A stretch of 64,000 nucleotides of DNA from a virus (taxonomy: Duplodnaviria > Heunggongvirae > Uroviricota > Caudoviricetes): the IMG/VR virus record IMGVR_UViG_2579778660_000001, one strand, 5' to 3'. Shown here piece after piece: positions 11,234 through 61,229 of the stretch (position 1 is its first letter; every line of letters begins with the position of its first letter). The notes under the pieces were generated by a model. It was not told the DNA's origin. It searched no databases and worked only from the letters and a program-made list of their open reading frames with translations. The position numbers and the translations under genes were made by a program.

Positions 11234-11250
11234 AATCAAATTTCTAACAT
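11234..11250 (-). promoter_or_regulatory. operator-like site (ATGTTAGAAATTTG on the minus strand)
   Basis: One of about 12 copies of the ATGTTAGAAAACTAATT-type motif; adjacent 18-bp palindrome AGTGTATTTATATACACT. Confidence 0.5.
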
Positions 11251-11337
11251 AGTGTATTTATATACACTGTTGATTCTGTCCGATGTGATCGAGTAGGATC
11301 GCGGTCACTGCTCCGGTAGCGACTGCCAAAAAAAGCA

Positions 11338-11362
11338 AAAGCCGCTGAGAAGCGGCTTTTTG
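11338..11362 (+). terminator. intrinsic terminator (agccgctgagaagcggct + T run)
   Basis: Perfect GC hairpin followed by TTTTT. Confidence 0.75.
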
Positions 11363-11422
11363 GTGTATAAATCCACTGGCATAGATTTATACGGTAGATA
11401 GATTTTTTCACGGAACTATCTG

Positions 11423-12385
11423 GTGAATATTTTAAATTCAGTTTCAGTAACTTTCAACACTTCTGAGTATAAAAACAACACTGAATACCACAAAAAAATC
11501 AAAGGTCATCAGTTGAGTTTTTTTGCTCGTCATATCGGTCTTCTTTCCCCTTCACATAGCGCCATTATTGCCGAGTTCGCCAACCTGGCAGGGGCTACCG
11601 ATGAATACATGATCCGTCGCTCATATGCTGATATGTCCGAGATTACAGGACGCAGTATTTCTACTGTACGCCGGGCATTTGCTGAAGCGACGAAGTGCGG
11701 AATGCTTGTTAGGCAACATCAGGTAGCGAATAACAATGCCCAGGTGTGTAACGTATATCGGTTTACGACACAATTTCTCCACTTCATTCATGTAGCAATG
11801 GAGATAGGGGGTAAGCAGGGCATCAAATTTGCCAACGCCACAAAACTGGTTAAGCAGTTGATTTCAAAGGTTCGTTATTTTTTTGAAACTGGGAACCCCC
11901 TGTTCAAATTGAACAAGTCCCCCCATGTTCAAAATGAACAGCCAATAGAAAATAAGAGTCACTCTATAGCAAAAAGAAGAGAAAGATCATGCGCGGTTCA
12001 GCCAAAGGCTTCACCAGCAGATAGTTCTCAAGCGGATAATGGGGTGCTGGATAAAAAACCAGTGATCAGGGAAGAACATACCAACCGCTGCCTGGCGGCG
12101 GCAAAAGCGAGAGCTGCAAAGCGTCGTTCAGACGAGGGGCACGCAAAACGGCAGGCTCTGTATCGTACCGCTGAAAAGTTGGCAAAAAAATTTGCATGGA
12201 TACGTAGTGCCGCTACCGCAGTGAATAAGCCTAAACAATCCAGCGCCCTGGATTTCTCAATGGATTATTCTGGCTCCCAGGGGTGTGCAACCATTGGTGA
12301 AGCCTTTGACCTGATGAAACAGCGTGGCTATCGGTCTGAATTTGACCGGGAGGATTGGTCAATCCCTGCGGGATTCAGGGGATGA
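11423..12385 (+). CDS. helix-turn-helix DNA-binding protein (possible replication or immunity regulator), 320 aa
   Basis: Winged-helix-like segment ITGRSISTVRRAFAEATKCGML; basic C-terminal half; GTG start without a clear RBS, so the true start may be internal. Confidence 0.45.
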   Translation: MNILNSVSVTFNTSEYKNNTEYHKKIKGHQLSFFARHIGLLSPSHSAIIAEFANLAGATDEYMIRRSYADMSEITGRSISTVRRAFAEATKCGMLVRQHQVANNNAQVCNVYRFTTQFLHFIHVAMEIGGKQGIKFANATKLVKQLISKVRYFFETGNPLFKLNKSPHVQNEQPIENKSHSIAKRRERSCAVQPKASPADSSQADNGVLDKKPVIREEHTNRCLAAAKARAAKRRSDEGHAKRQALYRTAEKLAKKFAWIRSAATAVNKPKQSSALDFSMDYSGSQGCATIGEAFDLMKQRGYRSEFDREDWSIPAGFRG

Positions 12386-12524
12386 CCTGTGTGCCTACAA
12401 AACATCCCAATGATCGGCAAATGCTCGCTCGATGATTTGTATTAGAAAATTAATTTGCTGTTTCTAAATCGGAATGTATGATCTGCATCATCGACTGAAG
12501 TCATCCATTGCTGAAATTTTTAGT

Positions 12525-12553
12525 TGATCTTCCATGTTTTCAGGCTTATATTC
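12525..12553 (+). promoter_or_regulatory. candidate sigma70 promoter (TTGATC - 17 bp - TATATT) driving the c4/icd-like region
   Basis: Good -35/-10 hexamers with 17-bp spacing upstream of a 240-bp non-coding structured segment. Confidence 0.4.
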
Positions 12554-12559
12554 ATGCCG

Positions 12560-12790
12560 TCGTAGCAAATTCTGCGACCAGGTTTGACAGCCTGAATGTT
12601 AGTGCGGACAACCGCAGATTTCCGATATTGCGGTATTTTTGTGTCCGTAAACCGCGTTACGCCCGAATTATGGTGGGGCGTGATGGGGAGGCTTCGGCCT
12701 GCTGGTTTCACTAACGCCAGTCTGTCAACCCTGTCACGTCCTGCCACCTGTTTGACAGCGGGTAGCAGGTTGTTAAACCTGTTAGTGAGG
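12560..12790 (+). ncRNA. candidate c4-like antisense regulatory RNA region
   Basis: No credible ORF; direct repeats gtttgacagc at 12572 and 12751 with complementary ctgtcaac at 12721; a UUCG tetraloop hairpin (aggcttcggcct); immediately 5' of an Icd-like ORF, as in the P1 immI arrangement. Confidence 0.35.
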
Positions 12791-12798
12791 CCGTAACT

Positions 12799-13023
12799 AT
12801 GGTTAATGCCAATCCTTGCTCACGTCCAGAATTCATCTGGCGTTTCCACTCCCTGCAAAAACACTGCGATCACTTCGCAATTGCCGCAACCGAAAAAGAA
12901 GCCCGTTCTCTGATCCCTGATCAGCATGGTGTTCTTACTGGTCGTTTCTCTACTTCCCCACAACCAAACACTAATCCCTGGTATCGCAATATTACCAATC
13001 CCAGCATTGCGGAGGCACACTGA
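12799..13023 (+). CDS. Icd-like small protein (cell-division-inhibitor family), 74 aa
   Basis: Motif PEFIWRFHSLQKH...AATEKEARS; a diverged paralogue at 51993-52190; translationally chained (TGATG) to downstream small ORFs. Confidence 0.4.
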   Translation: MVNANPCSRPEFIWRFHSLQKHCDHFAIAATEKEARSLIPDQHGVLTGRFSTSPQPNTNPWYRNITNPSIAEAH

Positions 13024-13142
13024 TGGATATCTGCCTTCATGAATGCTTTTAACCGGATGATGTCGGAGGCTGAGCACCGAGGAAAACGCTGGTATCACCC
13101 CAAAATGGGGCAATTCCAGGTGATCGGTTGGGGAGGTGAGTG

Positions 13143-13340
13143 ATGGACATCATGCAGGCGGTAAAAAAAATCAGGGAAGAACAGGCTGAAGTGTGCCGCC
13201 GTAAAGCATGGAGTGTTGGTGTATGGGCCTGGCCTGATAATTACTCTACTACCGGATGGTTTTGTATTAATGGACTCCAGATCCGGGAAGTTGATTTATC
13301 GACGGCTGATATAGTCGGTAATGATTGGTTCGTGACTTGA
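13143..13340 (+). CDS. DUF2829-like small protein, 65 aa
   Basis: GGAGGTGAG RBS with ATG at 13143; motifs A.VCRRKAW and C-terminal GNDWFV; occupies the slot where an antirepressor would be expected. Confidence 0.4.
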   Translation: MDIMQAVKKIREEQAEVCRRKAWSVGVWAWPDNYSTTGWFCINGLQIREVDLSTADIVGNDWFVT

Positions 13341-13348
13341 AGCGTGAT

Positions 13349-13373
13349 GCCCCGGCCTGGTCGGGGCTTTTTT
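13349..13373 (+). terminator. intrinsic terminator (gccccg-gcctggt-cggggc + TTTTTT)
   Basis: Strong GC hairpin and T run between convergent genes. Confidence 0.75.
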
Positions 13374-13858
13374 CATGCCTCATTAGTTGAGGTTGCTGCG
13401 TCTCCGACTGGTAACAGAGCGGTATTGCGTGGTTCGCCAGCAGGCCAGCGATAGCCAGACACTCTTGATGTTGGGAATGCGCGAATATTAACCGCATCCC
13501 CCTGGTTCCCACCCAGGACAAGCAGATCGCCATTGGCGCGGCGTCCGACAACGAAGCCTACGTGCCCACCGCCTACGCGGGTAAATACAACGATACATCC
13601 GTATGCCGGTGTATCTAATTTCTCGCCCCAATCCAGATAGGATTTTGCCGACTCAAATCTTGTTGAGCGGATGCCTACACGTTCCAGCATTGCACCGACA
13701 AATGCTGCGCACCACGGCGTTTCATCGTCTTTAATTCCGCCGCGCTTGATGTCGCGCCAAAACTGAACGATTTCAGGGTTGTGTTTAGCGCCTTTTATTT
13801 CAGTCAGGCCAATGTGCTTACGTGCTTCAATTAGCCAGCGAGGTTCAATGTTTGCCAT
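13373..13858 (-). CDS. CHAP-domain peptidoglycan hydrolase (Cys/His peptidase), 161 aa
   Basis: Catalytic-type motifs PWCAAFV (Cys) and GGHVGFVV (His); divergent from the DarB-like gene. Confidence 0.55.
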   Translation of the reverse strand: MANIEPRWLIEARKHIGLTEIKGAKHNPEIVQFWRDIKRGGIKDDETPWCAAFVGAMLERVGIRSTRFESAKSYLDWGEKLDTPAYGCIVVFTRVGGGHVGFVVGRRANGDLLVLGGNQGDAVNIRAFPTSRVSGYRWPAGEPRNTALLPVGDAATSTNEA

Positions 13859-13932
13859 ATTTTTTTCCGGTCATGGGTTAATAAGTAGGCAAACTATGGG
13901 GGGTATGTGATTTTGACGGTAGTATCGTCCCC

Positions 13933-21323: not shown

Positions 21324-21563
21324 ATGCGAAAGAATCGTAGGTTTACGATCGACGACTTAAAAGCGTACTCACAAGGGAAGGGATACGCCCTTGAATACCA
21401 CCGTTATAAGCGAGTATTTACCCTGCGGCATATAGAAAACCCTTCGAAATGGGGATGGATTTATTTTCCGCACACTGACGATAAGCTGGTGGGGCTTGTT
21501 GATGATTTATCCTATGAAGGATGGATGATTGCTATCGACAAGGCGGTTACGGAAATTAACTAA
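21324..21563 (+). CDS. hypothetical protein, 79 aa
   Basis: Starts 3 nt after the upstream stop; Trp/Tyr-rich. Confidence 0.4.
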   Translation: MRKNRRFTIDDLKAYSQGKGYALEYHRYKRVFTLRHIENPSKWGWIYFPHTDDKLVGLVDDLSYEGWMIAIDKAVTEIN

Positions 21564-21758
21564 CCGGATAAAGTAAACCATTAAAAATAACAAGTTGGGT
21601 AAATGACATACAATTTACCCGGCTTGTTGACCCGCATCACCATTTATTCTAAAAACAAGTCCGACCTGTTGCATTCGCCTATCTCTTTAGTAGTATTCCC
21701 CTCGATTTTGATAAAGCTAACGATCTTGTTATTATCGTGTTCATGATTTAAGGAATTT

Positions 21759-21775
21759 TGTGTTAGAAAATTGAT
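21759..21775 (+). promoter_or_regulatory. operator-like site TGTGTTAGAAAATTGAT overlapping the start of the VRR-NUC gene
   Basis: Motif copy. Confidence 0.5.
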
Positions 21776-22217
21776 GCGAAGACGCAGGCATCATAGTGCG
21801 TATTCTGAAATATCCCCGCACGCTGCTGCACTGAGAGAGTTAGAAAGAAATCCTGACTTATTAAAACGGAATTACGAACATTACGAACAGGTTCGCGTTC
21901 TGGATTGGCTGTATCGCAACATGCGATACGTGTATGAGCACACACACTCAACACCGAACGGCGGCCTGAGAGGCAAAAGGACAGCCATTAAGATGGTGGC
22001 AGAAGGTCAGAAGAAGGGCTATCCGGACCTTTCTATTGACCTTGCTCGTGGTGGGTATCACGGAATGCGCATTGAGATGAAGCACGGGAGAAACCGTCTG
22101 ACTCCCGAACAGCTCGTCTGGATGACTCGCCTCACGGAAGCAGGCTATTACTGCTTTGAGGCGCGCAGTGCCGATGAAGCCATAAAAGCTATCACGGAAT
22201 ATGTAAATCTTGATTAA
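21774..22217 (+). CDS. VRR-NUC family nuclease, 147 aa
   Basis: PD-(D/E)xK-type motifs GYPDLSI and IEMK; ATG at 21774 (track start at TTG 21771). Confidence 0.6.
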   Translation: MRRRRHHSAYSEISPHAAALRELERNPDLLKRNYEHYEQVRVLDWLYRNMRYVYEHTHSTPNGGLRGKRTAIKMVAEGQKKGYPDLSIDLARGGYHGMRIEMKHGRNRLTPEQLVWMTRLTEAGYYCFEARSADEAIKAITEYVNLD

Positions 22218-22802: not shown

Positions 22803-22819
22803 ATGTTAGAAAACTAATT
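22803..22819 (+). promoter_or_regulatory. operator-like site ATGTTAGAAAACTAATT (consensus copy)
   Basis: About 25 bp upstream of the ATG at 22842. Confidence 0.55.
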
Positions 22820-22841
22820 TAGCAAAGTGACGGGAACAGCA

Positions 22842-24050
22842 ATGAGTCAACACACTGATACTTCTAATCTGGAAATTATCTCGACAGCAATTGAAACGCT
22901 GCGCACACAAATCGCTCTTATACAGAAACGGAATCCGGGTGATGACCTGTCAAAGCGACTGCACGAGAGTGTCATTGCCACTACAGATAACCTGGTGGCG
23001 GAAATCAACAAGCTGCTTGATGATGGGGCAGTTGATTACAATAAGCTGGTGGATCAGTTTGAGGAATACCAACAAGCCGTTAATGATGGCTTGAGCCGTT
23101 TTTCGCAAGTCACAGGCGTATCAGCGACAGTTGAAAGCCTGGGTGATGCAGTTAATCAATTTGCCGCGAATATGCGTAATGAGATCGGCAATCTGGAAGC
23201 GCGTCTTGAACAGGCAAATACACTGCGTAAATCTGCCGAAGCCGATTTGAACCGTTACAAAAAAGACTATCCGCCCAGCCTGACAAAGCGGCTGGATGTT
23301 GCGGAGAAGGATAACCGCACGCTGAAAAGAGAGCGCCGGGAACTAAAAGAGCGTTTAACCAGGCTCAATCAGCAATGCATTGATTATCAAGGCGAAGGCG
23401 TCACACTGCGTAAAAAGTTGGCTACAGCGCAGAGCATTATCGAAACATTAAAGCGAGAGTGCTCACAGCTTGGTCACGATCTGAACCGTGCTTGTGGCAT
23501 GGGACAAAGACCAGAGACATTTCCACTTATGTATGATGGGCGGGATGCCATTGCCTACATCCATGAGTATCCGCACGGCCTGGTTGCGGAAACTGGGCAG
23601 CGTGGCGAAGCACTGCTGACGGCTAATTACCATCAACAAATCAGAACCAATCGCCTGTTAACGATGGATGTGATCCCATCGGTGTGGGGAACGCCGCTTT
23701 ACTATCGCCTGCCGGGCTTCGAAAAGGACTGGAATACCGACATAGACGAATGTCTCGCAGATAAAATTATGGCGTACCTGGAGACGGATTTTCCGCGCTT
23801 ATATCGCCGGATTATGGACTCTAAGGATGCGCCAATCGATGAATTAAAAATGCGTCCGGAGACGCTGGAGGCAATCAAGCAGACGGAGTTTGATACTGTA
23901 TTCAGTGTGGCCTGCATTCCAAGCTGTTTCCATGAAAGCATTCCGTTCATGCAAGGAGATCGTCGTCAGGAAATCATTGACGCTTGCCGGGTATGGGCGA
24001 ACGAATGGGATAAGAAGAATGGGGGTGTAGAAGATCTTTACGGGAAATAA
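22842..24050 (+). CDS. hypothetical coiled-coil protein, 402 aa
   Basis: ATG at 22842 (track start is an upstream GTG); long ORF with coiled-coil N-terminal half. Confidence 0.5.
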   Translation: MSQHTDTSNLEIISTAIETLRTQIALIQKRNPGDDLSKRLHESVIATTDNLVAEINKLLDDGAVDYNKLVDQFEEYQQAVNDGLSRFSQVTGVSATVESLGDAVNQFAANMRNEIGNLEARLEQANTLRKSAEADLNRYKKDYPPSLTKRLDVAEKDNRTLKRERRELKERLTRLNQQCIDYQGEGVTLRKKLATAQSIIETLKRECSQLGHDLNRACGMGQRPETFPLMYDGRDAIAYIHEYPHGLVAETGQRGEALLTANYHQQIRTNRLLTMDVIPSVWGTPLYYRLPGFEKDWNTDIDECLADKIMAYLETDFPRLYRRIMDSKDAPIDELKMRPETLEAIKQTEFDTVFSVACIPSCFHESIPFMQGDRRQEIIDACRVWANEWDKKNGGVEDLYGK

Positions 24051-24069
24051 TGTGTTAGAAATCTAAAAT
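24051..24069 (+). promoter_or_regulatory. operator-like site TGTGTTAGAAATCTAAAAT
   Basis: Immediately after the stop at 24050, at the head of a 1.2-kb non-coding region. Confidence 0.45.
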
Positions 24070-24699
24070 TACGATTCGAATGTATTGATTGTGAAGGTAA
24101 CTTAACATAGAATTTTCCTTGCTGGTGGGCGGCACCCACGTTTCGCTTGCTGGGCTTGATAGTCACTTATTGGTTATTGTTCGCCCACCAGCATTTAACA
24201 AATTAAAGCGTTAGAAAAGTATAGTAACGCAAGAGCACGCTTTGGCACCGTGCAGGCCAAAGTTCAGCAGGTTTAGTGCGGAAAGTGGTTTCAGAGAGAG
24301 CACTTTGCGGAGTAAACGACAGTACATGTTGAGCCACGGAAGGTCTTTTTAAGGTGTTCATTGATGATGGTCCGGCAGAGAGTAACGGTACATGCTGCAT
24401 CTAATCATCAATGCACATCTTCAACATTAAGGAGGCATAGGGATTTTTGTGGCGGTTACCTTTTGCCCTGAGTCTCCTTAATGTTGCGGTAATGCACCTA
24501 TGCGGATGTGGCCTTGCATTGTGTCTTGAAAGAATGGGGTAAGGCCGGGGACATCCCCAGGGGGAGGCACCCCCGCTGCAACGAACAGCCACAGACGGCA
24601 GTCGAGTGATGGGAACGTGCAAAGACTTTAAACCTCGTTATGGCTGGCGTGGCAAACGCGACAACCGAGACAGAGCGGTGACGGGCGGAGAGAGTGCCG

Positions 24700-25284: not shown

Positions 25285-25360
25285 GATGGTGTAGCTCAGC
25301 GGTTAGAGCGGTTGACTGTTAATCAACGGGTCGATGGTTCAAATCCATCCACCATCGCCA
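25285..25360 (+). tRNA. tRNA-Asn (anticodon GUU)
   Basis: Cloverleaf folded by hand: acceptor gatggtg/caccatc, D arm gctc/gagc, anticodon loop CUGUUAA, T loop TTCAAAT, encoded CCA. Confidence 0.85.
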
Positions 25361-25362
25361 AT

Positions 25363-25438
25363 GCCGGTTTAGCTCAGTTGGTAGAGCGCCTGCCTTGTAA
25401 GCAGGATGTCAGCGGTTCGAGTCCGTTAACCGGCACCA
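25363..25438 (+). tRNA. tRNA-Thr (anticodon UGU)
   Basis: Acceptor gccggtt/aaccggc, anticodon loop CUUGUAA, T loop TTCGAGT, encoded CCA; 2 nt after tRNA-Asn. Confidence 0.85.
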
Positions 25439-28951: not shown

Positions 28952-29059
28952 CATTAGATATTTAGTATTAATTTTCTAATACAATCATCTTTTTGCCAGT
29001 CTATACAGTTTTAACATTCTCATTATCATCCCCTCGGTCATTTCCTGCCCGGGGGATTA

Positions 29060-29452
29060 ATGGAACAAATCAGCAGCGCAGAAATTGCGGATATCATGAT
29101 TAGGGCTGACTGCTATCTGACAGTCACTGAAATTACCATTCTCGCCAAAGAAAAATACCCTCATCTCCATGTTTCACGGGTAAGTGTAACTAACATCATT
29201 CGTCATTTTGTTCGTTCAAGCAGGGCAATCTGTGAGCTTGATGATCGCGTTTACCCACGAAAATACTGGTTGCATGGCCTGAACGGATATCAGTTCAAGG
29301 TGCGTGGGCGAACCCCTGAATACGGCAGTTTACTGGTTAAAAACTGTAGCAGGAAATCAGTCGAACAGGCGCGAAAAGAGCAACGAGAGCTGGTGGACAT
29401 GGCGAATAAGCTGTGGAATGCCGCCGTTAAAAAGCGTGGTGTTGCTTTATGA
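29060..29452 (+). CDS. hypothetical basic protein, possibly a late-promoter activator (Lpa-like position)
   Basis: Immediately 5' of pacA and overlapping its start; functional call by position only. Confidence 0.3.
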   Translation: MEQISSAEIADIMIRADCYLTVTEITILAKEKYPHLHVSRVSVTNIIRHFVRSSRAICELDDRVYPRKYWLHGLNGYQFKVRGRTPEYGSLLVKNCSRKSVEQARKEQRELVDMANKLWNAAVKKRGVAL

Positions 29453-32349: not shown

Positions 32350-33387
32350 TTACCAGAGCTTTGCGGCGCGCTGCGTTTGGGGGAATGTGTATCCGTAACG
32401 TTCTTCGATTGCTTTGCCGTATTTTTTACGCGCTTCATTCAGTTTGATGCCGGTCAGGTCGTCTCCAGAGGCCATCATTACGTCTAACAATTCCAGATCC
32501 ATTTTATCCAGCCTTGCCATTGCTTCACGCGATGTACGAATCTTACGTTCAATGATATGGCGAATAGCCGGATCGGCATCCTCCAGCATCTTAGCTGATT
32601 TCTGCTTAAGGTTTTCGTTGCGGATATCGATGTTCCTTAAGATATACGACTTCGCAACGTAGCTTGGCTGATGTTTTTCCAGGTCACGAACACGATATAA
32701 GCTAAAGTCGCCGAGAAGGCTGCAAGGCACCGATTCGACGCCAGAATAAATTGTAATGCTACGGCGTTCACCAACATTATTGACAACGGGGATCGTTGTC
32801 TTCGGTAGTTTTGCGAAAACGAATGCGCCATGTGCGCCAACTCTAAAGCGAGAAAGGGCATTGCTGCCTTCGATGTTTGTTGTCAGCACAACATCTGTAT
32901 ATGCCTCTTTACGCGCCCGGTAGACCTCGCCTTCAGGCTCAGCTTCAAAGAAGCGCTGTTCTTCTTCAAGAGCACCTACGATTTGAGAAAAAACCCTATT
33001 TTTCAGGCTTTTCTTTATGATTTTGTCGTATTTTTTGAGCAATTGTTCACGTGTAAATGTACGTGTTGTTGTAGCGCTTTGCACAACAACATGCGTGCTT
33101 TGATTGGTGTCCTCAATGATGAATGGGATCGGAGAATATACAGACTCAACAATGTTAGACGCTTTGCCGTCAGCATTACGGCACAAGTCAACAAAGGCTT
33201 TCCATTCTGCGAGGCACTTTTCAGCTTCTTCTAGTACATTTTGGTCGTGTGTTAGTGCAACGTGGCGGAATTCCTCGCCAGCATAACTGGTATCATGGAA
33301 AACAGAGTTTGCGACCACCAGCTCTTTCCACCGTTCAGCGGTTTGCAGGAACCGTTTGTACTCTTTCTCGATCGACTTCTTACTCAT
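32350..33387 (-). CDS. candidate C1-type immunity repressor by position (c1 slot between pacB and the rox-dre unit), 345 aa
   Basis: Position matches c1 in the P1-family pac-c1-lox arrangement; an operator-like motif lies in its own upstream region; no motif-level identification possible. Confidence 0.4.
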   Translation of the reverse strand: MSKKSIEKEYKRFLQTAERWKELVVANSVFHDTSYAGEEFRHVALTHDQNVLEEAEKCLAEWKAFVDLCRNADGKASNIVESVYSPIPFIIEDTNQSTHVVVQSATTTRTFTREQLLKKYDKIIKKSLKNRVFSQIVGALEEEQRFFEAEPEGEVYRARKEAYTDVVLTTNIEGSNALSRFRVGAHGAFVFAKLPKTTIPVVNNVGERRSITIYSGVESVPCSLLGDFSLYRVRDLEKHQPSYVAKSYILRNIDIRNENLKQKSAKMLEDADPAIRHIIERKIRTSREAMARLDKMDLELLDVMMASGDDLTGIKLNEARKKYGKAIEERYGYTFPQTQRAAKLW

Positions 33388-33410
33388 TATTCCTACTCGA
33401 TTTAGTTTTC

Positions 33411-33427
33411 TAACATAAAATCCCTAT
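33411..33427 (-). promoter_or_regulatory. operator-like site ATGTTAGAAAACTAAAT upstream of the c1-slot gene
   Basis: Motif copy 24 bp upstream of the start at 33387. Confidence 0.55.
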
Positions 33428-33600
33428 GACAAATCTATGTCGAATAACAGAGTGAGTAAAGGATCGAACTATGATTTTTTTGTCATCAACTTTAGAAAAC
33501 CAACCGTTGAAACCACACTTCGCAAATTAAAGACCATGAAGGCAACGTGTTACTGTCCATCATCAATCTATGATGGATTACAAAAAAAATCGGCATTTTA

Positions 33601-33784: not shown

Positions 33785-34813
33785 ATGGGAGAATTAATTA
33801 TCTCTGGCAGTTCCGGTGGTTTTCTGCGCAACATTGGCAAAGAGTACCAGGAAGCCGCAGAAAACTTTATGCGGTTCATGAATGACCAGGGGGCTTATGC
33901 GCCGAATACTCTGCGCGACCTCCGGTTGGTGTTTCATTCCTGGGCGCGCTGGTGTCACGCTCGCCAGCTCGCCTGGTTCCCGATCTCACCAGAAATGGCC
34001 CGCGAGTATTTTCTTCAGCTGCATGATGCCGATCTGGCTTCGACCACCATTGATAAGCACTACGCCATGCTGAACATGCTGCTTTCGCATTGTGGCCTTC
34101 CGCCACTTTCGGATGATAAAAGTGTTTCTCTGGCTATGCGGCGCATCCGGCGCGAAGCGGCAACTGAAAAAGGCGAACGAACAGGCCAGGCTATACCGCT
34201 GCGGTGGGACGATCTGAAACTGCTCGACGTCCTGTTGTCCAGGTCAGAACGGCTGGTGGACCTGCGCAACCGGGCTTTTCTCTTTGTTGCATACAATACG
34301 CTGATGCGTATGTCGGAAATCTCGCGTATTCGTGTAGGAGATCTGGACCAAACAGGTGACACTGTCACGCTACATATTTCACACACGAAGACAATAACGA
34401 CCGCCGCCGGGCTTGATAAGGTGCTTTCCCGTCGCACTACCGCTGTGCTGAATGACTGGCTGGATGTTTCCGGGCTTCGCGAACATCGTGACGCAGTGCT
34501 GTTCCCGCCGATACACCGTAGCAATAAGGCCAGGATCACGACAACGCCCCTTACTGCACCTGCAATGGAGAAAATATTCAGCGACGCCTGGGTGTTGCTG
34601 AATAAAAGAGATGCTACGCCAAACAAAGGGAGATACCGGACGTGGACCGGGCATAGTGCACGCGTCGGGGCCGCTATTGATATGGCTGAAAAGCAGGTGT
34701 CTATGGTGGAGATCATGCAGGAAGGAACCTGGAAGAAACCGGAAACACTTATGCGGTATCTGCGCCGTGGCGGTGTGTCTGTGGGGGCTAATAGCCGCCT
34801 GATGGATTCGTAA
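33785..34813 (+). CDS. dre: Dre-like tyrosine site-specific recombinase (Cre homologue), 342 aa
   Basis: Extended colinearity with P1 Cre (WARWC..WFP, LNMLLS..GLP..SD..VSLAMRRIRRE, AYNTLMRMSEISRIRV, GHSARVGAA..MA, W...LMRYLR), catalytic R/H-x-x-R/W/Y in place; rox-type site 150 bp upstream. Confidence 0.9.
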   Translation: MGELIISGSSGGFLRNIGKEYQEAAENFMRFMNDQGAYAPNTLRDLRLVFHSWARWCHARQLAWFPISPEMAREYFLQLHDADLASTTIDKHYAMLNMLLSHCGLPPLSDDKSVSLAMRRIRREAATEKGERTGQAIPLRWDDLKLLDVLLSRSERLVDLRNRAFLFVAYNTLMRMSEISRIRVGDLDQTGDTVTLHISHTKTITTAAGLDKVLSRRTTAVLNDWLDVSGLREHRDAVLFPPIHRSNKARITTTPLTAPAMEKIFSDAWVLLNKRDATPNKGRYRTWTGHSARVGAAIDMAEKQVSMVEIMQEGTWKKPETLMRYLRRGGVSVGANSRLMDS

Positions 34814-34814
34814 A

Positions 34815-34831
34815 TTAAATTTCTAACACAT
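34815..34831 (-). promoter_or_regulatory. operator-like site ATGTGTTAGAAATTT
   Basis: Between the dre stop and the next operon. Confidence 0.45.
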
Positions 34832-45833: not shown

Positions 45834-45866
45834 ATGTTAGAAAACTAAAATCAACGTTCTAACGTA
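45834..45866 (+). promoter_or_regulatory. operator-like pair (ATGTTAGAAAACTAAAA plus inverted half-site CGTTCTAACG)
   Basis: Motif copy with partner forming GTTAGAA-N15-TTCTAAC. Confidence 0.5.
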
Positions 45867-50735: not shown

Positions 50736-50768
50736 TGTGTTAGAAAATCAATTTTGATTTTCTAACAT
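50736..50768. promoter_or_regulatory. palindromic double operator (GTTAGAAAATCAA-tt-TTGATTTTCTAAC) in the divergent promoter region between ref and the leftward early operon
   Basis: Perfect 13-bp inverted arms; P1 ref is known to be repressor-controlled. Confidence 0.65.
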
Positions 50769-50812: not shown

Positions 50813-51388
50813 ATGAAGCAAAGCTATTGGGAGAAACAGACACAAAAAGCCCTGCAAAAACTGGCTGATCCGAAATGGCGGGAGGAACAAAGGGCAAAGC
50901 GTCTTCAGCAAGCTCAACGCCAGCAGCAGCGTGCGCGAGAAAAAGCCGCATCGCCTGAATATCGGCAAAAGAAAATTGAAAAAGCGAAGCAATATGAACA
51001 GCGAAGAAAAGAGAAGGCCGCTTCTGCTCCTGTCAAAAAAACTCGCGCGTCACGCGGCCTGAAAGGCAGAACACTCACAGCAGATGAGCGCCGGATACAA
51101 ACTGCCATCGGTGCTCTCCCCTGCATTGCCTGCCATATGCACGGACAGCATAGCCCTGTGGTATCCCTGCACCACATCTTCGGAAGAACAGCAGAGAACG
51201 CGCATAAATACGTCCTCCCTTTGTGTAAATGGCACCATCAACACGCAGCGCCAGCAGAGATCCGCGAGCAATACCCCTGGTTGGTTCCTGTTCATGCTGA
51301 TGGAAAAATAGGCGGTAAAGCAGATTTCAGGCGGCACAATGCTGATGAAATGACGTTGTATCAGATGGCGATTGAATTGACGAATTAG
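50813..51388 (+). CDS. ref: Ref (recombination enhancement function; HNH-type RecA-dependent nuclease)
   Basis: Basic N-terminal tail with ADPKWREEQ and C-terminal HNH-like Cys/His core CIACHMHGQH...HHIFGR...LCKWHH; alternative TTG start at 50771. Confidence 0.65.
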   Translation: MKQSYWEKQTQKALQKLADPKWREEQRAKRLQQAQRQQQRAREKAASPEYRQKKIEKAKQYEQRRKEKAASAPVKKTRASRGLKGRTLTADERRIQTAIGALPCIACHMHGQHSPVVSLHHIFGRTAENAHKYVLPLCKWHHQHAAPAEIREQYPWLVPVHADGKIGGKADFRRHNADEMTLYQMAIELTN

Positions 51389-51399
51389 TTTTCTAACAT
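51383..51399 (-). promoter_or_regulatory. operator-like site ATGTTAGAAAACTAATT (exact consensus copy)
   Basis: Immediately after the ref stop. Confidence 0.5.
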
Positions 51400-51992: not shown

Positions 51993-52190
51993 TCAAAGGA
52001 GGCTGCCAATATCGCTACTATCCCCACCCCAACTCATTCTGAATTTATCTGGCGTTTCTATTCCTGCCAAAAACACCTGTATATCTGCGTCATGGCTGCA
52101 ACCGAAGCAGAAGCTCGTTCATACCTTCCCCTGGCGGAACGGGGCGTAATTGGTGATAAACAGATACTGGGAAACAGTGGAACTACATGA
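51993..52190 (+). pseudogene. Icd-like paralogue lacking a canonical start codon
   Basis: Translation SEFIWRFYSCQKH...AATEAEARS parallels 12799-13023; AAGGAGG RBS is followed by an ATC codon, and the first in-frame ATG is at 52092. Confidence 0.3.
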
Positions 52191-52274
52191 GGCGGGAGTA
52201 ATTCGTGACCTGATGGAGAATTCCGTTCCCCGCCGCTATCGTGCAGGGAACGGCATCTCCGTGGTTAAAGGTGT

Positions 52275-52667
52275 TTAAAGCTCACCTGCGCGCTGTTTTT
52301 CAAGCACAGATTTAACATTTGGCGCTTTCCCTTTAAAAGAATGGAAAGTGCCACATTTTTCTGTTTTAACCTCGCGCAGAGCTTCGCCGTCGGCGTTCTG
52401 CCATTGATGGGATAATGTCATATCACCGCGAGAAGGAACATCCAGCGAGTACAGCGTGTAAGTTCCCCCCATCTCCGCATACTCCTGGAACACATAGCTC
52501 ATTACGTCAGATTCAGTTTTTCGGTGTGCGTTATCAACCTTATTCCCATTCAGAAATATGGCATCTGGATAGATTTTTATATCAAACCGACCGCACTTAA
52601 CTTGTAAATCTCCGGCGCTCGCGATCAAAGGGAAAGACGCCAGTAAAGCAATAGCCAATCTTTTCAA
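52275..52667 (-). CDS. secreted protein with signal peptide, 130 aa
   Basis: N-terminal MKRLAIALLASFPLIASA signal peptide. Confidence 0.5.
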   Translation of the reverse strand: MKRLAIALLASFPLIASAGDLQVKCGRFDIKIYPDAIFLNGNKVDNAHRKTESDVMSYVFQEYAEMGGTYTLYSLDVPSRGDMTLSHQWQNADGEALREVKTEKCGTFHSFKGKAPNVKSVLEKQRAGEL

Positions 52668-52687
52668 TTCTGCCTCCGCTGCGTAAC

Positions 52688-53311
52688 TTATTGCCCGTAT
52701 TTTTTACACCATTGCTCTGCCATTTGTTTGGCTAAAGGCCCGGCTACTGCACTGTATTCTGCTGTTTTACTTTGCACACATGAAGCAGATGGTTTTTTAT
52801 TTCGCTGCTCGGTTAGTTTGCGCTCATAAGCCATCATGCTATCGAACCCGGCAATATCACTTTGGCGAAGCATTCCCTTTTTAACCAAAAATTGCTGCCC
52901 CTCTGGCACCAACGCAAGCATAAAAAGAGGTTGCAATAACTCACCTAATCCTTGCTGGCGATACACTTCGAATTGCTGCCATCCCTGACTTAATCTGGAA
53001 AGAGTATCTTTGGTTGAATAACCTGTTTTTGTTATAGCTTTGTCCGTCAGATATGCTGTATATGCAAAAACGCAAAAGTCAGTTTTACCAATAAACTGAG
53101 TTCCAACAGGCCGTAATGGAATGCCCTCCCTCTTGCAAAAGTCCATAATGGCCGCTTGTGAATGAACTCCACCAGCGTTATTCATAACCTGCTGCCCTGC
53201 CCTGAATTGTGCAGGTAACGCAGTTGCATTGGCAGTATTAGCAGATACGCATCCCAACATAGCCGCGAGCGCGGCCCCTAAAGCCCTTAACTTCACTACA
53301 CCATCCTTCAT
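52688..53311 (-). CDS. secreted or periplasmic protein with signal peptide, 207 aa
   Basis: Signal-peptide-like N-terminus; several Cys residues. Confidence 0.5.
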   Translation of the reverse strand: MKDGVVKLRALGAALAAMLGCVSANTANATALPAQFRAGQQVMNNAGGVHSQAAIMDFCKREGIPLRPVGTQFIGKTDFCVFAYTAYLTDKAITKTGYSTKDTLSRLSQGWQQFEVYRQQGLGELLQPLFMLALVPEGQQFLVKKGMLRQSDIAGFDSMMAYERKLTEQRNKKPSASCVQSKTAEYSAVAGPLAKQMAEQWCKKYGQ

Positions 53312-53527
53312 GCAAACAAAATGAAGTTTTATGTTATAAAAACAATTAACTACATAAACATGATTTAGGCCAAATTTCGGTTAAAAAATAAAATCCACCA
53401 AAAGTGGTTGACACTATTTTGGAAATCACAAACTGCACATAATCCATCGCGCTAACGGCTCCCGTTGAAGGTTCTTTTGACGATTAACTTTCAGCCGAAG
53501 CGCGGTAGGGAGTCATAACGCCAAAGC

Positions 53528-54233: not shown

Positions 54234-54236
54234 TCA

Positions 54237-54368: not shown

Positions 54369-54561
54369 GTCATTCACTCCGTTTAATTTTTAATCTAATG
54401 CCAGCAAATGAAGCTGGCCCCCGCATAAAGATTAATGAAAGTCACTTGTCACCAGTGAGGGGATTTATGAACCACATCCCCCTGAACTGGTGTCCTGTCT
54501 GTTTCTCGCATTTCACACCCTGCATACAGTTTCCCCCAGGTTATGACTGAGAGGCTTTGTT

Positions 54562-56077: not shown

Positions 56078-56110
56078 ACCACACATAGCCTAGTAGTTTA
56101 TGCTGGGCTT

Positions 56111-56839: not shown

Positions 56840-56860
56840 AGCTTATCCTGATTACTTTTA

Positions 56861-57061
56861 TTATGGATAGTTAAAAGATTCAACAGGTGATGGTGGCTGA
56901 ATTGGGTAATGTTTCTTCTCGTACTCCTCAATGAGAAGACTCATAACCTCAAAGAAATCACCTTCCGGAGTATTCATTTCCGGTTCGTTATCGAACATCG
57001 GTTCGACCGCACGCAGTGCGGCCTCATAATCTTGTTCTGTACGGATAGGTTTAATGTTCAT
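56861..57061 (-). CDS. small protein resembling the N-terminal domain of long HigA-type antitoxins, 66 aa
   Basis: Pattern I.TEQDYEAAL..VE...D.EP.....GD.FEVMSLLIEEYE, as in the E. coli YgjM/HigA N-domain (recalled); no clear RBS. Confidence 0.3.
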   Translation of the reverse strand: MNIKPIRTEQDYEAALRAVEPMFDNEPEMNTPEGDFFEVMSLLIEEYEKKHYPIQPPSPVESFNYP

Positions 57062-57074
57062 TAATTACAAAGGA

Positions 57075-57100
57075 AAGCCCACTTGCTAAGTGGGCTTTTT
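57075..57100. terminator. bidirectional terminator hairpin (agcccact-tgcta-agtgggct)
   Basis: 8-bp stem flanked by an A run and a T run. Confidence 0.6.
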
Positions 57101-57117
57101 GTATGTGTTTTACTATA

Positions 57118-57456
57118 TCAGGCTGCTTTTTTATTCATGTTCCGCTGAGAAATAAATTTTTCAGCAGTATTGATACGACTTAACTCTTCCTGAACGCGCA
57201 TATCATTTTCGACTTCCCACAGATCTACTGCGGTCTGAAGATTAATCCAAAAATCTACAGAAGTATCGAATGCTTTTGCCAGGCGATATGCCATATCCAT
57301 CGTTAGCTTACGATTATTATTAACAAGAGCACTTACGGTGTTACGATGAACATGAAGTATTTCTGCTAACTCGTTGATCTTCAGCTCTAACGGCTCCAGG
57401 TATTCGTACAGCAGGATATCACCTACGGTCGTCGGTTTTCTGGTTGCCTGTTTCAT
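57118..57456 (-). CDS. higA: HigA-family antitoxin (XRE helix-turn-helix), 112 aa
   Basis: GDILLYEYLEPLELKINELAEILHVHRNTVSALVNNNRKLTMDMAYRLAKAF...FWINLQ is the canonical HigA HTH pattern. Confidence 0.8.
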   Translation of the reverse strand: MKQATRKPTTVGDILLYEYLEPLELKINELAEILHVHRNTVSALVNNNRKLTMDMAYRLAKAFDTSVDFWINLQTAVDLWEVENDMRVQEELSRINTAEKFISQRNMNKKAA

Positions 57457-57527
57457 TTTTTTGCCCTTACTAGCGTGCGTATTAAGTGGACTCTGGTCAG
57501 AACCCGGTCCGTAACCGGGTATCTGTT

Positions 57528-57830
57528 TTAGTATTTGTGAGGGTCGAGATACAAGTCCTCGGCCTTTCCGTTAACCCACTTAAAAATTAACCTATATTGC
57601 TTATTCACCCTTACTGATGAATAGCCATTTAGCTTCCCTGACAGTTCCTCATACCGATTACCTGGTGGTGATCTTAAATCCTTACAGGTAGTTGCGGCAT
57701 TGATAATGTCCAACTTCCGTGACAATGTCATATGAATATCAGGAGGTATCTTTCTATGTGGTGTTGAAAATTCAAAAAAATCATCAAGCCACGCATCCCT
57801 GAAATCCTTTATGTTAATTTTTTTGGTCAT
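57528..57830 (-). CDS. higB: HigB-family toxin (RelE/ParE-fold mRNA interferase), 100 aa
   Basis: C-terminal YRLIFKWVNGKAEDLYLDPHKY killer-protein motif; toxin-first hig gene order. Confidence 0.75.
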   Translation of the reverse strand: MTKKINIKDFRDAWLDDFFEFSTPHRKIPPDIHMTLSRKLDIINAATTCKDLRSPPGNRYEELSGKLNGYSSVRVNKQYRLIFKWVNGKAEDLYLDPHKY

Positions 57831-57980
57831 TAGTCATTTGATCCTCCGTGATGATTACCGAATGCCATAACTATAGCGCACCGTTGCACTGTGCGCAAGT
57901 GCATTTTATGAATTCCCCCTCCTTCATCCAAAATCACAATCTCCCGAAAATCTTCCTTTCGATACCTGACAGATCGACCT

Positions 57981-58784
57981 TTGAGGATGCTTATGGGCCG
58001 TTTTGACGAATGGTTTGCTGACGATGCAAACCTGGCAAGTAAGGAGTCAGAACATGACAGCACGCAGAGAGAAACGCCAGCGCCGATTGAAGCGAATGCA
58101 GGAGGCGCGCCGGAACATGGCAATACCGGTTCGGATTCATTCAGCATTCTGGAAGAGCAACCCGCCGCCAAAGCTGATAGCCATGATAATTTTGCTGATA
58201 GCAACGGTGGCCTTACTCCGGATGCTGGCGAATCAGATATAGCCATACTTCCACCTTCCCTGGCTGGCAGAGAACCAACTCCACAGCTAAAAGCACGCTA
58301 TAACGGGCATAAAGCCTTTAACGACCAAATCCGCGCAGACTGGATGCTGATTATTGAATCCAGCCCAGACGCGTTTCAGGCTCTCTTATATCGACCAGAT
58401 GTTGGCACATATGGGGTAGTCAGCGACGAAACAGGAGAAGAGTCATTCACTGAACTGGATAACAACCAACGCGAACTGACTTACCAGGAACCTGAAATCG
58501 TTTATGTGCTGGATAACCCTGACGGACGTGACTCTTTCCATGCGATTGACGCAGACGGTGAGCAGGATGGCTTAACCGATGATGTTCTGATTCTGCGTAT
58601 TGCAGCAAATAACGTCCCCGTCGGCTCAATTCTTGAATGGAATGAAGAGATGGTAAACGGCGTAGCCCGCCGCTGGTGGTACGTGCACCGTATTTTTAGC
58701 TACGGCACACAGCATGTTGGTTCGCTTTACTACTGCATACCTGCCAGGAATTTTGATACGACTCAAAACGGAGTGATCGAATGA
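57981..58784 (+). CDS. hypothetical acidic structural protein, 267 aa
   Basis: First gene of a four-gene operon that ends with a baseplate-spike-like protein. Confidence 0.45.
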   Translation: MRMLMGRFDEWFADDANLASKESEHDSTQRETPAPIEANAGGAPEHGNTGSDSFSILEEQPAAKADSHDNFADSNGGLTPDAGESDIAILPPSLAGREPTPQLKARYNGHKAFNDQIRADWMLIIESSPDAFQALLYRPDVGTYGVVSDETGEESFTELDNNQRELTYQEPEIVYVLDNPDGRDSFHAIDADGEQDGLTDDVLILRIAANNVPVGSILEWNEEMVNGVARRWWYVHRIFSYGTQHVGSLYYCIPARNFDTTQNGVIE

Positions 58785-59548
58785 CTTCAAATAAAACCCT
58801 CCTGGCGCGAACAGGTGAATGGCAAACCTCACGCACAGGAAAATTCCAGACCACGGGCTTTGAAAACGTGGATAACGCGTTTGCGACGCTAATCAGCAAC
58901 ATTTTTTCTGATATCTTACTGGTGGCCCCCGCGCCGGAAGAAAAACGCTTTGCGTCATTCCTGAATCGTCCACCAGCAGAGCGTGTCTATGTGGCCCGTT
59001 TCGACAATGCGATCGAGTTTCTTAAAGCAGTTCGTCGCGCAAATGCCGGGCAAGGGAGAAAACCTGAAAACCAGAACATTAACCGGGATGCTCTCCCCCT
59101 GGTCAATATCTCACGCACTATGGATATCAATTATATCAACGATGATCAGCAGATTGACCGCAAAAAAGTAGCCAGTTTTTGCGAACCAGATACCGGAATG
59201 CCTTTAGCAGAACTGGAATACACCCAGGCCATTCTGACGTATGACGTTACGTTAATGGCAACTGATAAAGCGACCATGAGTCTGATGTGTAATTCGCTGG
59301 GCGCACGGCTTCGCCTGATGACAGGTACACAATTTGAAGCAACCACTCACCTTGTTCGTGTCCCGGTCCCGCTGATTTGCTCGATACAGGATGCCAAAGA
59401 AGTCGGCTTTACGGATGTTTCAGCACCAATTGGAGAAGAGCGTATTTATGCCACACAAGCGCCGATAAGTGTGATTGCAGACGTGATCACAGCATGGGAG
59501 TTGGACGCAAAACGTATTATTACCGAAACCTCGATATCTATGGGGTGA
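58781..59548 (+). CDS. putative baseplate/tail component, 255 aa
   Basis: ATGA overlap; operon context. Confidence 0.4.
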   Translation: MTSNKTLLARTGEWQTSRTGKFQTTGFENVDNAFATLISNIFSDILLVAPAPEEKRFASFLNRPPAERVYVARFDNAIEFLKAVRRANAGQGRKPENQNINRDALPLVNISRTMDINYINDDQQIDRKKVASFCEPDTGMPLAELEYTQAILTYDVTLMATDKATMSLMCNSLGARLRLMTGTQFEATTHLVRVPVPLICSIQDAKEVGFTDVSAPIGEERIYATQAPISVIADVITAWELDAKRIITETSISMG

Positions 59549-59551
59549 TAA

Positions 59552-60532
59552 GTGGCCCAGGAGTTACAACAATATTTTCTACAGTCAGTGCTCATTAACG
59601 ATAACAAAGTGCCACGAGACTGGATTTTTACCGCAGTATATGTAGAAAAAACCAGCCTCAAAGCCCCTTTGCTAAAACTGGAAATTCATGACGCTACCGG
59701 CACCGTAATTGATGACTGGAAAGCCAAATACGGTGCATCGCTGGTGGCTGAAATGGGCGATCCAAACGGTAATGCAGGCACTTTTAAAACAGATTTCTTT
59801 GTTACGTCTGCAATGCTGGCTGGTGATGTTGTTACCGTTATTGCTGTCAGTGAAGACGTGCGCAGGTTTAAGATCCCCTCCCCGCGCACAAATTTACATA
59901 CCAACAAAACACCAGACGCTATATTCAAGGCATATTCCGGCAAACTTAAAATTACCAGCAGCGTGCTAAAACGCGCAGTTACATATCATCTGAATGCTGG
60001 TGACAAACCGTCAAAAATGCTTTCGGAGATAGCGCGAGACAAAGGTGCATTGTGTTGGGTATGTCGGGGGGAATTTAACTTTTACACCCTGGCTGATCTG
60101 ATGAAGCAAACGCCATCATTTACCTACGAGGGGAATAACCCTAAAGCAGAATACACTTTGTCCAAAATGCGCCTACTCCAACAGGAACATGCGACAACAG
60201 CAAAGAATCAATATCGTTTTGTTGGGTATTCCATGACCGATGGCTACGTCGAATATGGCGATAGCTCACTCCCAGTGCGTTATATATCCGACTCTGATAT
60301 GGAAACTCTTCGCAATATGCAGCTGTCTCTCGTCCCCAAAATGGATATAGAAGTCGCAGGCAATCCTGATATAAAACCGGGGATGGTAATAGAGATTATC
60401 GTATACCGCTATGACCAGGAAAACCGCATTGATGAATCAATGCCCCGTAAGCTGATAGTAAAAAATGTTGCGCACTTTGAGGACCGCGTAGGCTACACAA
60501 CACGAATGATATTGGGAGTGCCTAACAAATGA
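59552..60532 (+). CDS. putative baseplate/tail component, 326 aa
   Basis: Operon context. Confidence 0.4.
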   Translation: MAQELQQYFLQSVLINDNKVPRDWIFTAVYVEKTSLKAPLLKLEIHDATGTVIDDWKAKYGASLVAEMGDPNGNAGTFKTDFFVTSAMLAGDVVTVIAVSEDVRRFKIPSPRTNLHTNKTPDAIFKAYSGKLKITSSVLKRAVTYHLNAGDKPSKMLSEIARDKGALCWVCRGEFNFYTLADLMKQTPSFTYEGNNPKAEYTLSKMRLLQQEHATTAKNQYRFVGYSMTDGYVEYGDSSLPVRYISDSDMETLRNMQLSLVPKMDIEVAGNPDIKPGMVIEIIVYRYDQENRIDESMPRKLIVKNVAHFEDRVGYTTRMILGVPNK

Positions 60533-61182
60533 AGCGTAGAGCGCAAATTGTTGGAACTGTGCACCCGGCAGGGCTTATGCGTGCTCAAGTCCGTGTTTTA
60601 CCTGACTGGAATGGCGTTCCTGATGACGATCTACCCTGGGCGGAATACCAGTTACCCATCGGGAACGCTTTTGTACCTACAGTCAAAGGTGACCTGGTCT
60701 GGGTAGAGTTTCCTTATTTAGATGTTAACGGTCGAATAGACACCAGACGCCCAATGATAGTTGGTGCCGCTCAGGATGCGCCAGGCGGAGTTCCAAACGT
60801 CGCGCCGGAGGCGTCAGGCAATGGTAGCGGCTGGACGCCGCCTGAAGTAGACGGAGCGCCTCCCCGCCCGCAATTTTCGGCGACAAAAGATTTCGTTATT
60901 CACCGCAATAATGTGCTAGAAGTGCGAACGGCTGGCGGTGGATATGAAATAGCCAATACGGCAGCAGGTTCAAGGATTGGCATGAATGAGTCCGGGCAGA
61001 TATATATCATTGGTCCGGCTGATGTAATCGTGAATGCAGGAGGGAGTGTTAACGTCAAATCAGCCAACAACATCAATGTTAATGGGGAAAATATTGCTGT
61101 CACCGCTAACGGGGACATAGCTTTCAAGGCAGGGGGAACCTTTCAGGCCACTGCTGGCAACTTCGATTTCAAGAAAGGATAG
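60529..61182 (+). CDS. baseplate central spike-like protein (gpV-like)
   Basis: N-terminal OB-like region and Gly-rich beta-helix-like C-terminus (...GGYEIANTAAGSRIGMNESGQIYIIGPADVIVNAGGSVNVKSANNINVNGENIAVTANGDIAFKAGG). Confidence 0.45.
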   Translation: MKRRAQIVGTVHPAGLMRAQVRVLPDWNGVPDDDLPWAEYQLPIGNAFVPTVKGDLVWVEFPYLDVNGRIDTRRPMIVGAAQDAPGGVPNVAPEASGNGSGWTPPEVDGAPPRPQFSATKDFVIHRNNVLEVRTAGGGYEIANTAAGSRIGMNESGQIYIIGPADVIVNAGGSVNVKSANNINVNGENIAVTANGDIAFKAGGTFQATAGNFDFKKG

Positions 61183-61212
61183 AAAATGCACCCATTTGTG
61201 TTAGATAATTAA

Positions 61213-61229
61213 CGCGTATTTTCTAACAT
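61213..61229 (-). promoter_or_regulatory. operator-like site ATGTTAGAAAATAC upstream of rdgC-dmt
   Basis: Motif copy about 15 bp before the rdgC start. Confidence 0.5.

Follow-up and report, generated by a model that had tools for sequence, protein, structure and literature searches.

In phage P1, the C1 repressor acts at 22 dispersed, asymmetric 17-bp operators and controls RepL and Lpa among others, with Coi and Lxc as modulators (PMC8546580). A thematically similar arrangement is known from mycobacteriophage L5 and the Cluster A phages: a monomeric repressor of an unrelated family recognizes an asymmetric site repeated many times across the genome, in places inside operons (PMC9283540). 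Elongation is described as terminating at these numerous 'stoperators'. Here, we present a comparable array of sites in a 64,000-nucleotide stretch of DNA (IMG/VR record IMGVR_UViG_2579778660_000001; hereafter the window, meaning the whole stretch), which, on the evidence of its sequence, is a D6-like, P1-type phage-plasmid. Dispersed across it is a motif, (T)RTGTTAGAAAAYTAATT, which we consider very likely to be the operator of the element's own C1 (32350-33387), in what would be a D6-type version of the P1 ImmC circuit.

The relationship to Escherichia phage D6, the type member of this group, is close, with about 98% identity across most of the length of the window. In a whole-window BLAST comparison, the two are colinear in reverse orientation, with window 1-33614 corresponding approximately to D6 (MF356679) 36000 down to 3 and window 33619-64000 to D6 91157 down to 62054, and a few segments replaced. 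The segment 30000-36000 shares 97.8% identity with the pac-c1-dre fragment of D6 (AY753669) and 99.3% with the E. coli plasmid CP125036, and it matches 130 plasmids in PLSDB. We accordingly name genes by carrying the D6 names over onto a greedy map of the open reading frames (ORFs) of the window. An earlier reading of the stretch from sequence alone (hereafter the sequence-only reading) had treated the element as the bearer of an unknown C1 analogue; it is instead a close relative of D6, whose c1 had already been annotated as a P1-C1-like prophage repressor. The D6 records MF356679 and AY753669 have no annotated operators or promoters.

A dispersed intergenic motif and a distant C1 homologue

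The motif forms 15 half-sites at 13 loci, where about 12 occurrences had previously been counted over the same span (11234-61229). An alignment of the sites with their flanks places high information in the core TGTTAGAAAA and less in an AT-rich tail. Consensus searches of the window recover nine matches to ATGTTAGAAAACTAATT with up to three mismatches, against 0.20 expected from shuffled sequences, and 20 matches to the core with up to one mismatch, against 5.5 expected. An 18-position weight matrix (PWM) was built from the sites, with matches of at least 15 bits counted as sites. Scanned across the window, it returns 15 half-sites at this threshold and nothing between 10 and 15 bits, whereas 0.31 would be expected under Markov simulations of the whole window and 0.06 under a second-order Markov model trained on its intergenic DNA (at most one in 1000 runs). 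On leave-one-out scoring, 14 of the 15 score between 15.6 and 27.6 bits, and the weakest, 61213(-), scores 7.8 bits. The motif had been thought to lie almost always between genes; all 15 half-sites in fact do so, although intergenic DNA makes up just 12% of the window (binomial P about 1e-12), and its 56 kb of coding sequence has no site by the PWM. Nor does the motif occur at a similar density in three control genomes, with one weak match of at least 15 bits in the 94.8 kb of P1, none in the 93.5 kb of the Leclercia plasmid pE1_003, and none in 48 kb of a Citrobacter plasmid. In D6, by contrast with these, the same motif is found at the corresponding places (16 PWM matches of at least 15 bits). 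Conversely, the consensus of the P1 C1 operator, ATTGCTCTAATAAATTT, has no match in the window with up to three mismatches, as the sequence-only reading had also observed.

Four of the loci (12439, 45834, 50737, and 61198) are bivalent, with inverted pairs at an identical offset of 16 bp that span 32 bp in total; this offset recurs in D6, in the Escherichia fergusonii plasmid pEF-4, and in a metagenomic relative (L013). One of these, between ref and the leftward operon, had been singled out as a perfect palindromic double site at 50736-50768. Its 14-nt arms (50738-50751 and 50754-50767, with a 2-nt center) are 100% complementary, but the outermost bases differ (G vs A), which makes the 32-mer near-perfect rather than perfect, and it is not the sole double site. 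In a simple sigma-70 scan, most of the sites overlap, abut, or closely follow candidate promoters facing the adjacent genes. A hexamer resembling a -35 (TTAGAA) is contained in the motif itself, and one resembling a -10 (TAACAT) in its complement; the paired halves of the bivalent sites set these hexamers exactly 17 bp apart, as in those reading toward ref (50740-50768) and toward pdcB (45862-45834), so that the double operator is promoter-shaped. The single sites are oriented both ways relative to the downstream gene (about six sense and five antisense). The absence of an orientation bias relative to transcription, and the location of most of the sites at promoters, distinguish them from the stoperators of L5.

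The resemblance to P1, for which we used the RefSeq record with every C1 operator annotated, extends to several levels. In the ImmC region of P1 and P7, a homologous repressor is likewise encoded between pacB and the region of the lox/rox recombinase. The P1 operators are also 17 bp long, with a 5' core and an AT-rich tail, and come as monovalent sites and as bivalent sites in which the tails are central. They serve the same set of targets (c1, lpa, repL, c4, ref, mat, pmgR/S, hrdC-dmt, and the isaA operon). Even their habit of lying close to the stop codon of the preceding gene, seen in P1 for Omat, Orlf, OpmgRa, OpmgT, Olpa, and Obanab, is repeated in the window, where the sites at 11234, 24052, 28966, 34813, 51383, and 61198 lie within a few bases of one. 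The differences lie in the sequence itself, as the P1 word ATTGCTCTAATAAATTT and the word of the window, TGTTAGAAAAYTAATT, show no cross-matches; in the bivalent span (32 bp with a 2-bp overlap, vs 28 bp with a 6-bp overlap in Obanab and Oc1ab of P1); and in number (13 loci in 64 kb, or about 16 sites in the whole of D6, vs 22 operators in P1). With nearly every site at the position of an annotated operator of P1, the regulon can, as had been suggested, plausibly be read from the sequence. The sequence-only reading had overlooked repL, c4/icd, lpa, and mat as targets, along with the stretch that follows pmgS.

The c1 gene (32350-33387, minus strand) encodes a D6-type repressor of 345 amino acids (aa), 97% identical to the product of D6 gene 1 ('prophage repressor, similar to P1 C1'). 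With P1 C1 it shares 20% identity over 242 aa, colinear from the N-terminus (BLASTP E 5e-8), and both proteins match phrog_1678 over their full length (E 1e-167 for the C1 of the window). Its precomputed Pfam family is PF27008 (Phage_P7_repressor_C1). By these sequence comparisons, the product of 32350-33387 is a true but distant C1 homologue. An exhaustive profile search of 1.84 billion proteins recovered just 114 clusters of the family (clustered at 50% identity). The D6-type C1 is further marked by a C-terminal helical extension of about 60-100 aa, which is absent from P1 C1 and from relatives of about 270 aa. The proposal of a C1 analogue with changed DNA specificity is supported by several lines of sequence evidence, namely the distant homology of the repressors, the coincidence with P1 operator positions, the covariation of motif and C1 described below, and the lack of cross-matches.

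Under the circuit that we propose for the plasmid-prophage state, one C1 molecule would occupy each asymmetric 17-bp site, comprising the 5' core TGTTAGAAAA and the AT-rich tail YTAATT, whereas two would occupy each 32-bp bivalent site, with the tails meeting centrally and both of the promoter-like hexamers covered. C1 would block initiation or early elongation at the sigma-70-like promoters that its sites overlap, abut, or closely follow. Repressed in this way would be, besides c1 itself, the genes repL, lpa, ref, mat, pmgM, and pmgS, the c4-icd immI antirepressor module, and three operons: hrdC-dcm-dmt (methylase), dut-isaA, and the long leftward early one. We infer physical binding, the monomer stoichiometry, repression, and heteroimmunity alike. 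As the core differs from that of P1, ATTGCTCTAAT, neither repressor should recognize the operators of the other, and the D6-like elements would constitute an immunity group separate from P1; the absence of P1-type operators here and the near-absence of D6-type ones from P1 are as such a separation predicts. The D6-type pair is very probably a heteroimmune C1/operator pair within the known P1 C1/operator system. A full-text literature search for a D6 operator consensus gave no relevant match; the D6 genome paper lay outside that search, and the consensus may already be in print there.

These predictions bear on a common class of elements. D6-like phage-plasmids occur frequently in E. coli, Salmonella, and Shigella, and a C1 of this type is encoded by 149 PLSDB plasmids, some of which carry resistance genes. 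With the operator consensus, the lysogeny regulon could be read directly from any such sequence, and the class of C1 and operator would predict mutual immunity, coexistence, or superinfection among P1-like elements. The repressor-operator pairs are probably orthogonal to P1 C1, which could make them useful beside the Cre/Dre recombinase pair from the same two phages.

Covariation of the motif with C1 and the alternatives

We collected C1 relatives by tblastn and protein searches and compared the motif across seven lineages. In pEF-4, whose C1 is 71% identical to that of the window, the motif is present at 11 orthologous places; its positions are 84% identical between the two elements, against 67% for the 45-bp flanks (gapped alignment; Fisher P 3e-6), and the core is invariant. 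Four elements share an unchanged block, ATTTTATGTTAGAAAAYTAAWTCGAGTAGGAA, upstream of c1, although some 150 bp of neighboring DNA is scrambled. More generally, the motif is unchanged where C1 is 68-71% identical (pEF-4 and Salmonella pK91). In two metagenomic loci with C1s of 52% (L012) and 48% (L013) identity, the core TGTTAGAAAA is kept at c1, the dre end, pmgS, and lpa, and the tail drifts. In Leclercia pE1_003, with a C1 of 31% identity, there is no D6-type site; about 14 copies of AAATCCTTAGAATTACTAT are found instead, some preceding ref, rdgC, pmgM, pmgS, c1, and dre and others immediately following pro, pmgS, and dre. These were recovered with a seeded search using 16-mers from the upstream regions of c1, ref, and rdgC, which, when validated on P1, returned 19 near-matches to the known operator. 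The Citrobacter plasmid, whose C1 is 29% identical to that of the window and 49% identical to that of Leclercia, has sites of the Leclercia class in the same places and no D6-type site. Finally, P1 C1 is 20-24% identical to all the other C1s compared, and its operator word is that given above. Judging from these comparisons, each C1 clade has its own operator word at conserved positions, and these clade-specific words at fixed positions furnish the strongest computational argument that it is C1 that reads the motif. The series of D6-type, Leclercia-type, and P1-type elements amounts to a natural experiment in the re-targeting of a fixed set of promoters by a repressor family.

The Leclercia and Citrobacter sites (about 14 copies in pE1_003, NZ_CP042508, and at least nine in NZ_CP099371) define a third class of C1 operator, approximately CCTTAGAATTACTAT, which appears to be undescribed. 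The TTAGA shared by the D6 and Leclercia motifs and by the reverse complement of the P1 operator was considered as a homologous core and rejected, as the bivalent geometries would then be opposite; an alignment with the P1 operator in the same orientation, with the core outward and the tail inward, fits better.

Plasmid pK91 of Salmonella Typhi (NZ_CP029871) is a conjugative multiresistance plasmid with a BREX system. It was taken up as a possible divergent whole phage-plasmid and rejected as such, since its D6-like part is only a fragment, comprising hot, humD, phd-doc, isaA, the dut operon, dre, c1, and a truncated pacB. The fragment retains the c1 and dre-end operators.

Several observations weigh against an operator array read by C1. 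The NCBIfam equivalog model for C1, NF041318, gives the protein 25.3 bits against a cutoff of 500, so that it ranks as a family member and not as an equivalog, and function is being transferred across 20% identity. The ORF in the lxc slot next to ulx (21324-21563) has no similarity to P1 Lxc, and no conserved ORF occupies the region ahead of c1 that holds coi and imcAB in P1; with neither an Lxc nor a Coi homologue found, the circuit is not a full copy of that in P1, though analogues lacking sequence similarity are possible. Some of the sites have no convincing adjacent promoter, and the start site predicted at 61198 would fall within the ribosome-binding site of hrdC. The weakest half-sites (61213, 53331, and the partner halves 12454 and 45849) may be non-functional. 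Moreover, the covariation spans whole co-diverged genomes and would fit any co-diverging DNA-binding protein; no mosaic in which c1 alone had been exchanged was found.

This last point leads to the best-surviving alternative, namely that the motif is bound by another regulator, such as a Cro-, Lxc-, or Coi-like small protein or a host factor, and that C1 acts elsewhere. The covariation does not by itself single out C1, and the window has many small ORFs of unknown function that could supply such a protein. Nevertheless, we regard this as improbable. The sites coincide with the experimentally defined positions of the P1 C1 operators, the strongest and most conserved of them abuts c1, and the pK91 fragment, reduced to c1, dre, dut, and a few neighbors, keeps the c1 and dre-end operators. 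A host factor, in particular, cannot explain why plasmids from related enterobacterial hosts differ in the motif.

A slightly weaker contender, to which we assign little credence, holds that the motif is an early-promoter consensus for the sigma-70 RNA polymerase or a phage-specified factor rather than an operator. The TTAGAA and TAACAT hexamers, with their exact 17-bp spacing in the bivalent sites, are what such an element would look like. Yet the single sites occur in both orientations in near-equal numbers, conservation covers 17-18 bp and extends well past the two hexamers, several sites lie downstream of better promoters (e.g., 21760 and 33400), and the motif varies between lineages while the host sigma-70 remains constant. 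The P1-type late-promoter box CAAGTGACTT, found elsewhere at 54439, bears no relation to the motif. Further, both roles can be combined, the expected design being an operator set within a promoter. Least credible, and almost negligible, is the view that the AT-rich composition of intergenic DNA produced the motif as an artefact, or that it is a passive repeat marking mosaic module boundaries and has no part in regulation: while the motif is indeed AT-rich, and the operon boundaries where it lies include some next to regions unlike D6, the artefact is refuted by the 15 sites observed against the 0.06 expected under the intergenic model, and both versions are countered by the conservation of the motif beyond its flanks and its lack in the control genomes.

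A predicted Tus-like core in C1

The predicted structure of C1 has a Tus-like core over approximately residues 1-240, matching Tus, whose fold consists of two alpha+beta domains joined by beta strands that grip the DNA. C1 has invariant residues at R157, R159, R182, and G187. Such a fold would fit a monomer on an asymmetric site and, if it holds, would provide a structural reason for the asymmetry of C1 operators. We therefore raise, tentatively and with the balance tipped slightly against it, the possibility that the C1-family repressors of P1/D6-like phage-plasmids are Tus-fold proteins, in which a single molecule might grip an asymmetric operator as Tus grips Ter, and that the family diversified into at least three to four operator specificities at fixed positions of the regulon. 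At the sequence level, no Pfam Ter match to C1 was found at E values up to 10, nor was one found for distant members of the C1 family; hhalign of C1 against Tus gave a probability of 0.5% with 10 sequences and 1.5% with 66. No solved structure was recovered for C1 by sequence search. The two proteins also differ in function, Tus effecting the polar arrest of replication forks and C1 being a transcriptional repressor, and the literature searched contained no paper linking them. Were the prediction correct, the master repressor of these phage-plasmids would be tied structurally, and perhaps evolutionarily, to the enterobacterial replication terminator, and C1-operator complexes might be orientation-dependent roadblocks.

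Individual sites and other features of the element

The c1 site (33400-33416, minus strand), detected with the PWM, is placed between a candidate promoter (-35 TTTACT, -10 TAGATT) and the c1 start codon, 12 nt ahead of the latter. It is presumed to be the autoregulation site of c1, with Oc1a-e as its counterparts in P1. A second, weak and opposite core, TTAGAAAA, is seen about 95 bp upstream of c1 (33493-33500, plus strand), and scores 10.5 bits in D6. Its 8 bp are invariant in four of four aligned relatives amid scrambled surroundings, and it might serve as an auxiliary operator that faces dre or else take part in looping as a partner site. At the other end of the recombinase gene, the site at 34813-34829 (minus strand) overlaps the dre stop codon, 57 nt upstream of the orf117-orf116-dut-orf114-isaA operon. 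It is kept in pEF-4 and pK91, and sites of the Leclercia and Citrobacter types occur at the same spot; just as Ossb heads the ssb-isaA operon in P1, this site heads an operon ending in isaA.

Two sites belong with the genes for lytic replication and immunity. That at 11234-11250 (minus strand) lies 11 nt past the stop codon of pro, with the lytic replication gene repL 172 nt downstream, and corresponds to OrepL of P1; it is kept in pEF-4, and Leclercia has a site of its own type at the same spot. After repL comes the bivalent immI operator (12439-12470, plus strand), with a strong half at 12439-12455 and a weak inverted half at 12454-12470, to which Oc4 and Orlf of P1 correspond. Downstream of it follow the a1b1 target, the C4 RNA, and icd, and P1 has the same order of operator, promoters, a1b1, c4, and icd. 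The immI antisense system occupies 12546-12751 (plus strand), with the c4-a1b1 target at 12546-12598 and the C4 antisense RNA at 12666-12751; Rfam matches in the region, to RF03163 (54.4 bits) and RF01695 (68.8 bits), both exceed their gathering scores.

Three further sites are associated with the pmg genes. The first (21760-21776, plus strand), found with the PWM at the start of pmgM, the VRR-NUC gene, lies about 18-34 nt past the transcription start predicted for a strong extended -10 promoter (21708-21735); its equivalent is the Leclercia-type site upstream of the VRR-NUC gene of that plasmid. The second (22803-22819, plus strand), between pmgR and pmgS, abuts a -10-like TAAAAT, corresponds to OpmgRa/b of P1, and is kept in pEF-4. 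The pmgS start chosen in D6 style, GTG at 22827, falls just 7 nt beyond this operator, and no ribosome-binding site is visible for it; the real start may be the ATG at 22842, used in the sequence-only reading. The third (24052-24068, plus strand) follows the pmgS stop codon by 1 nt and closely precedes a candidate promoter (24085-24113) that reads rightward, toward the tRNA region (tRNAs at 25285-25435), and is tentatively a counterpart of Obanab or OpmgT of P1.

The lpa site (28966-28982, minus strand) lies 77 nt upstream of the gene for the late-promoter activator (29060-29452) and corresponds to Olpa of P1, and its equivalent upstream of lpa in L013 is bivalent. A search for late promoters with the P1 late-promoter PWM and the box CAAGTGACTT gave a single candidate, at 54426-54450, that is unrelated to the motif.

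Within the leftward operon, the bivalent site between ppp and pdcB (45834-45865, plus strand) has a weak half of 11.6 bits and is kept in D6 and pEF-4; its minus strand reads TTAGAA-N17-TAACAT toward pdcB. The palindromic site between ref and the leftward early operon of about 11 kb (50737-50768; halves 50737(+) and 50752(-), listed on the plus strand) scores 26-31 bits by the PWM and corresponds to Oref. Both halves of this pair are strong in pEF-4, and the right half is degenerate in D6 (76590-76680; TTGAATATCTAATCA). The PWM site at the far end of ref (51383-51399, minus strand) overlaps the ref stop codon (51388), and its TAACAT end can be read rightward as a -10 with TTGAAT (51372-51377) as the -35; it has the same position and strand relation as Omat of P1, which at 2628-2645(-) overlaps the ref stop at 2637. 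A weaker operator (53331-53347, plus strand; 15.6 bits on leave-one-out scoring) stands between the leftward ORF 52688-53311 and mat, upstream of the latter, with an equivalent at 72196-72213 in D6; in P1, mat is controlled by Omat. Lastly, the bivalent site between gp5 and hrdC(rdgC)-dcm-dmt (61198-61229; halves 61198(+) and 61213(-), listed on the plus strand), corresponding to Odmt, is bivalent also in D6 and pEF-4, and the Leclercia and Citrobacter classes likewise have a site upstream of rdgC.

D6 retains two antirepressor genes, both of which the element of the window has lost. The first, Roi-like orf18 of D6 (235 aa), which is the antirepressor gene of immI, survives here as a 9-codon remnant, MDICLHECF*, at 13023-13052 (plus strand), directly after icd (12799-13023); the C4 RNA and icd are intact, and the remainder was lost through an in-frame deletion of about 570 bp between short repeats. 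The second icd/antirepressor module (D6 orf82-83, Rha-like) is absent at 52130-53254, its slot being filled by two unrelated leftward ORFs (52275-52667 and 52688-53311). With both antirepressors apparently missing, the inducibility of the element may be affected.

An unbiased 12-mer repeat discovery was dropped as a route to operators because its output was dominated by Chi sites; Chi-like 12-mers also top the output of the repeat search in P1 and the Leclercia plasmid. Chi (GCTGGTGG) is present in 41 copies in the whole window, against 1.5 expected (e.g., 10608-59747), with none in the first 10.6 kb and a predominance of the plus strand from about 10.6 to 37 kb.

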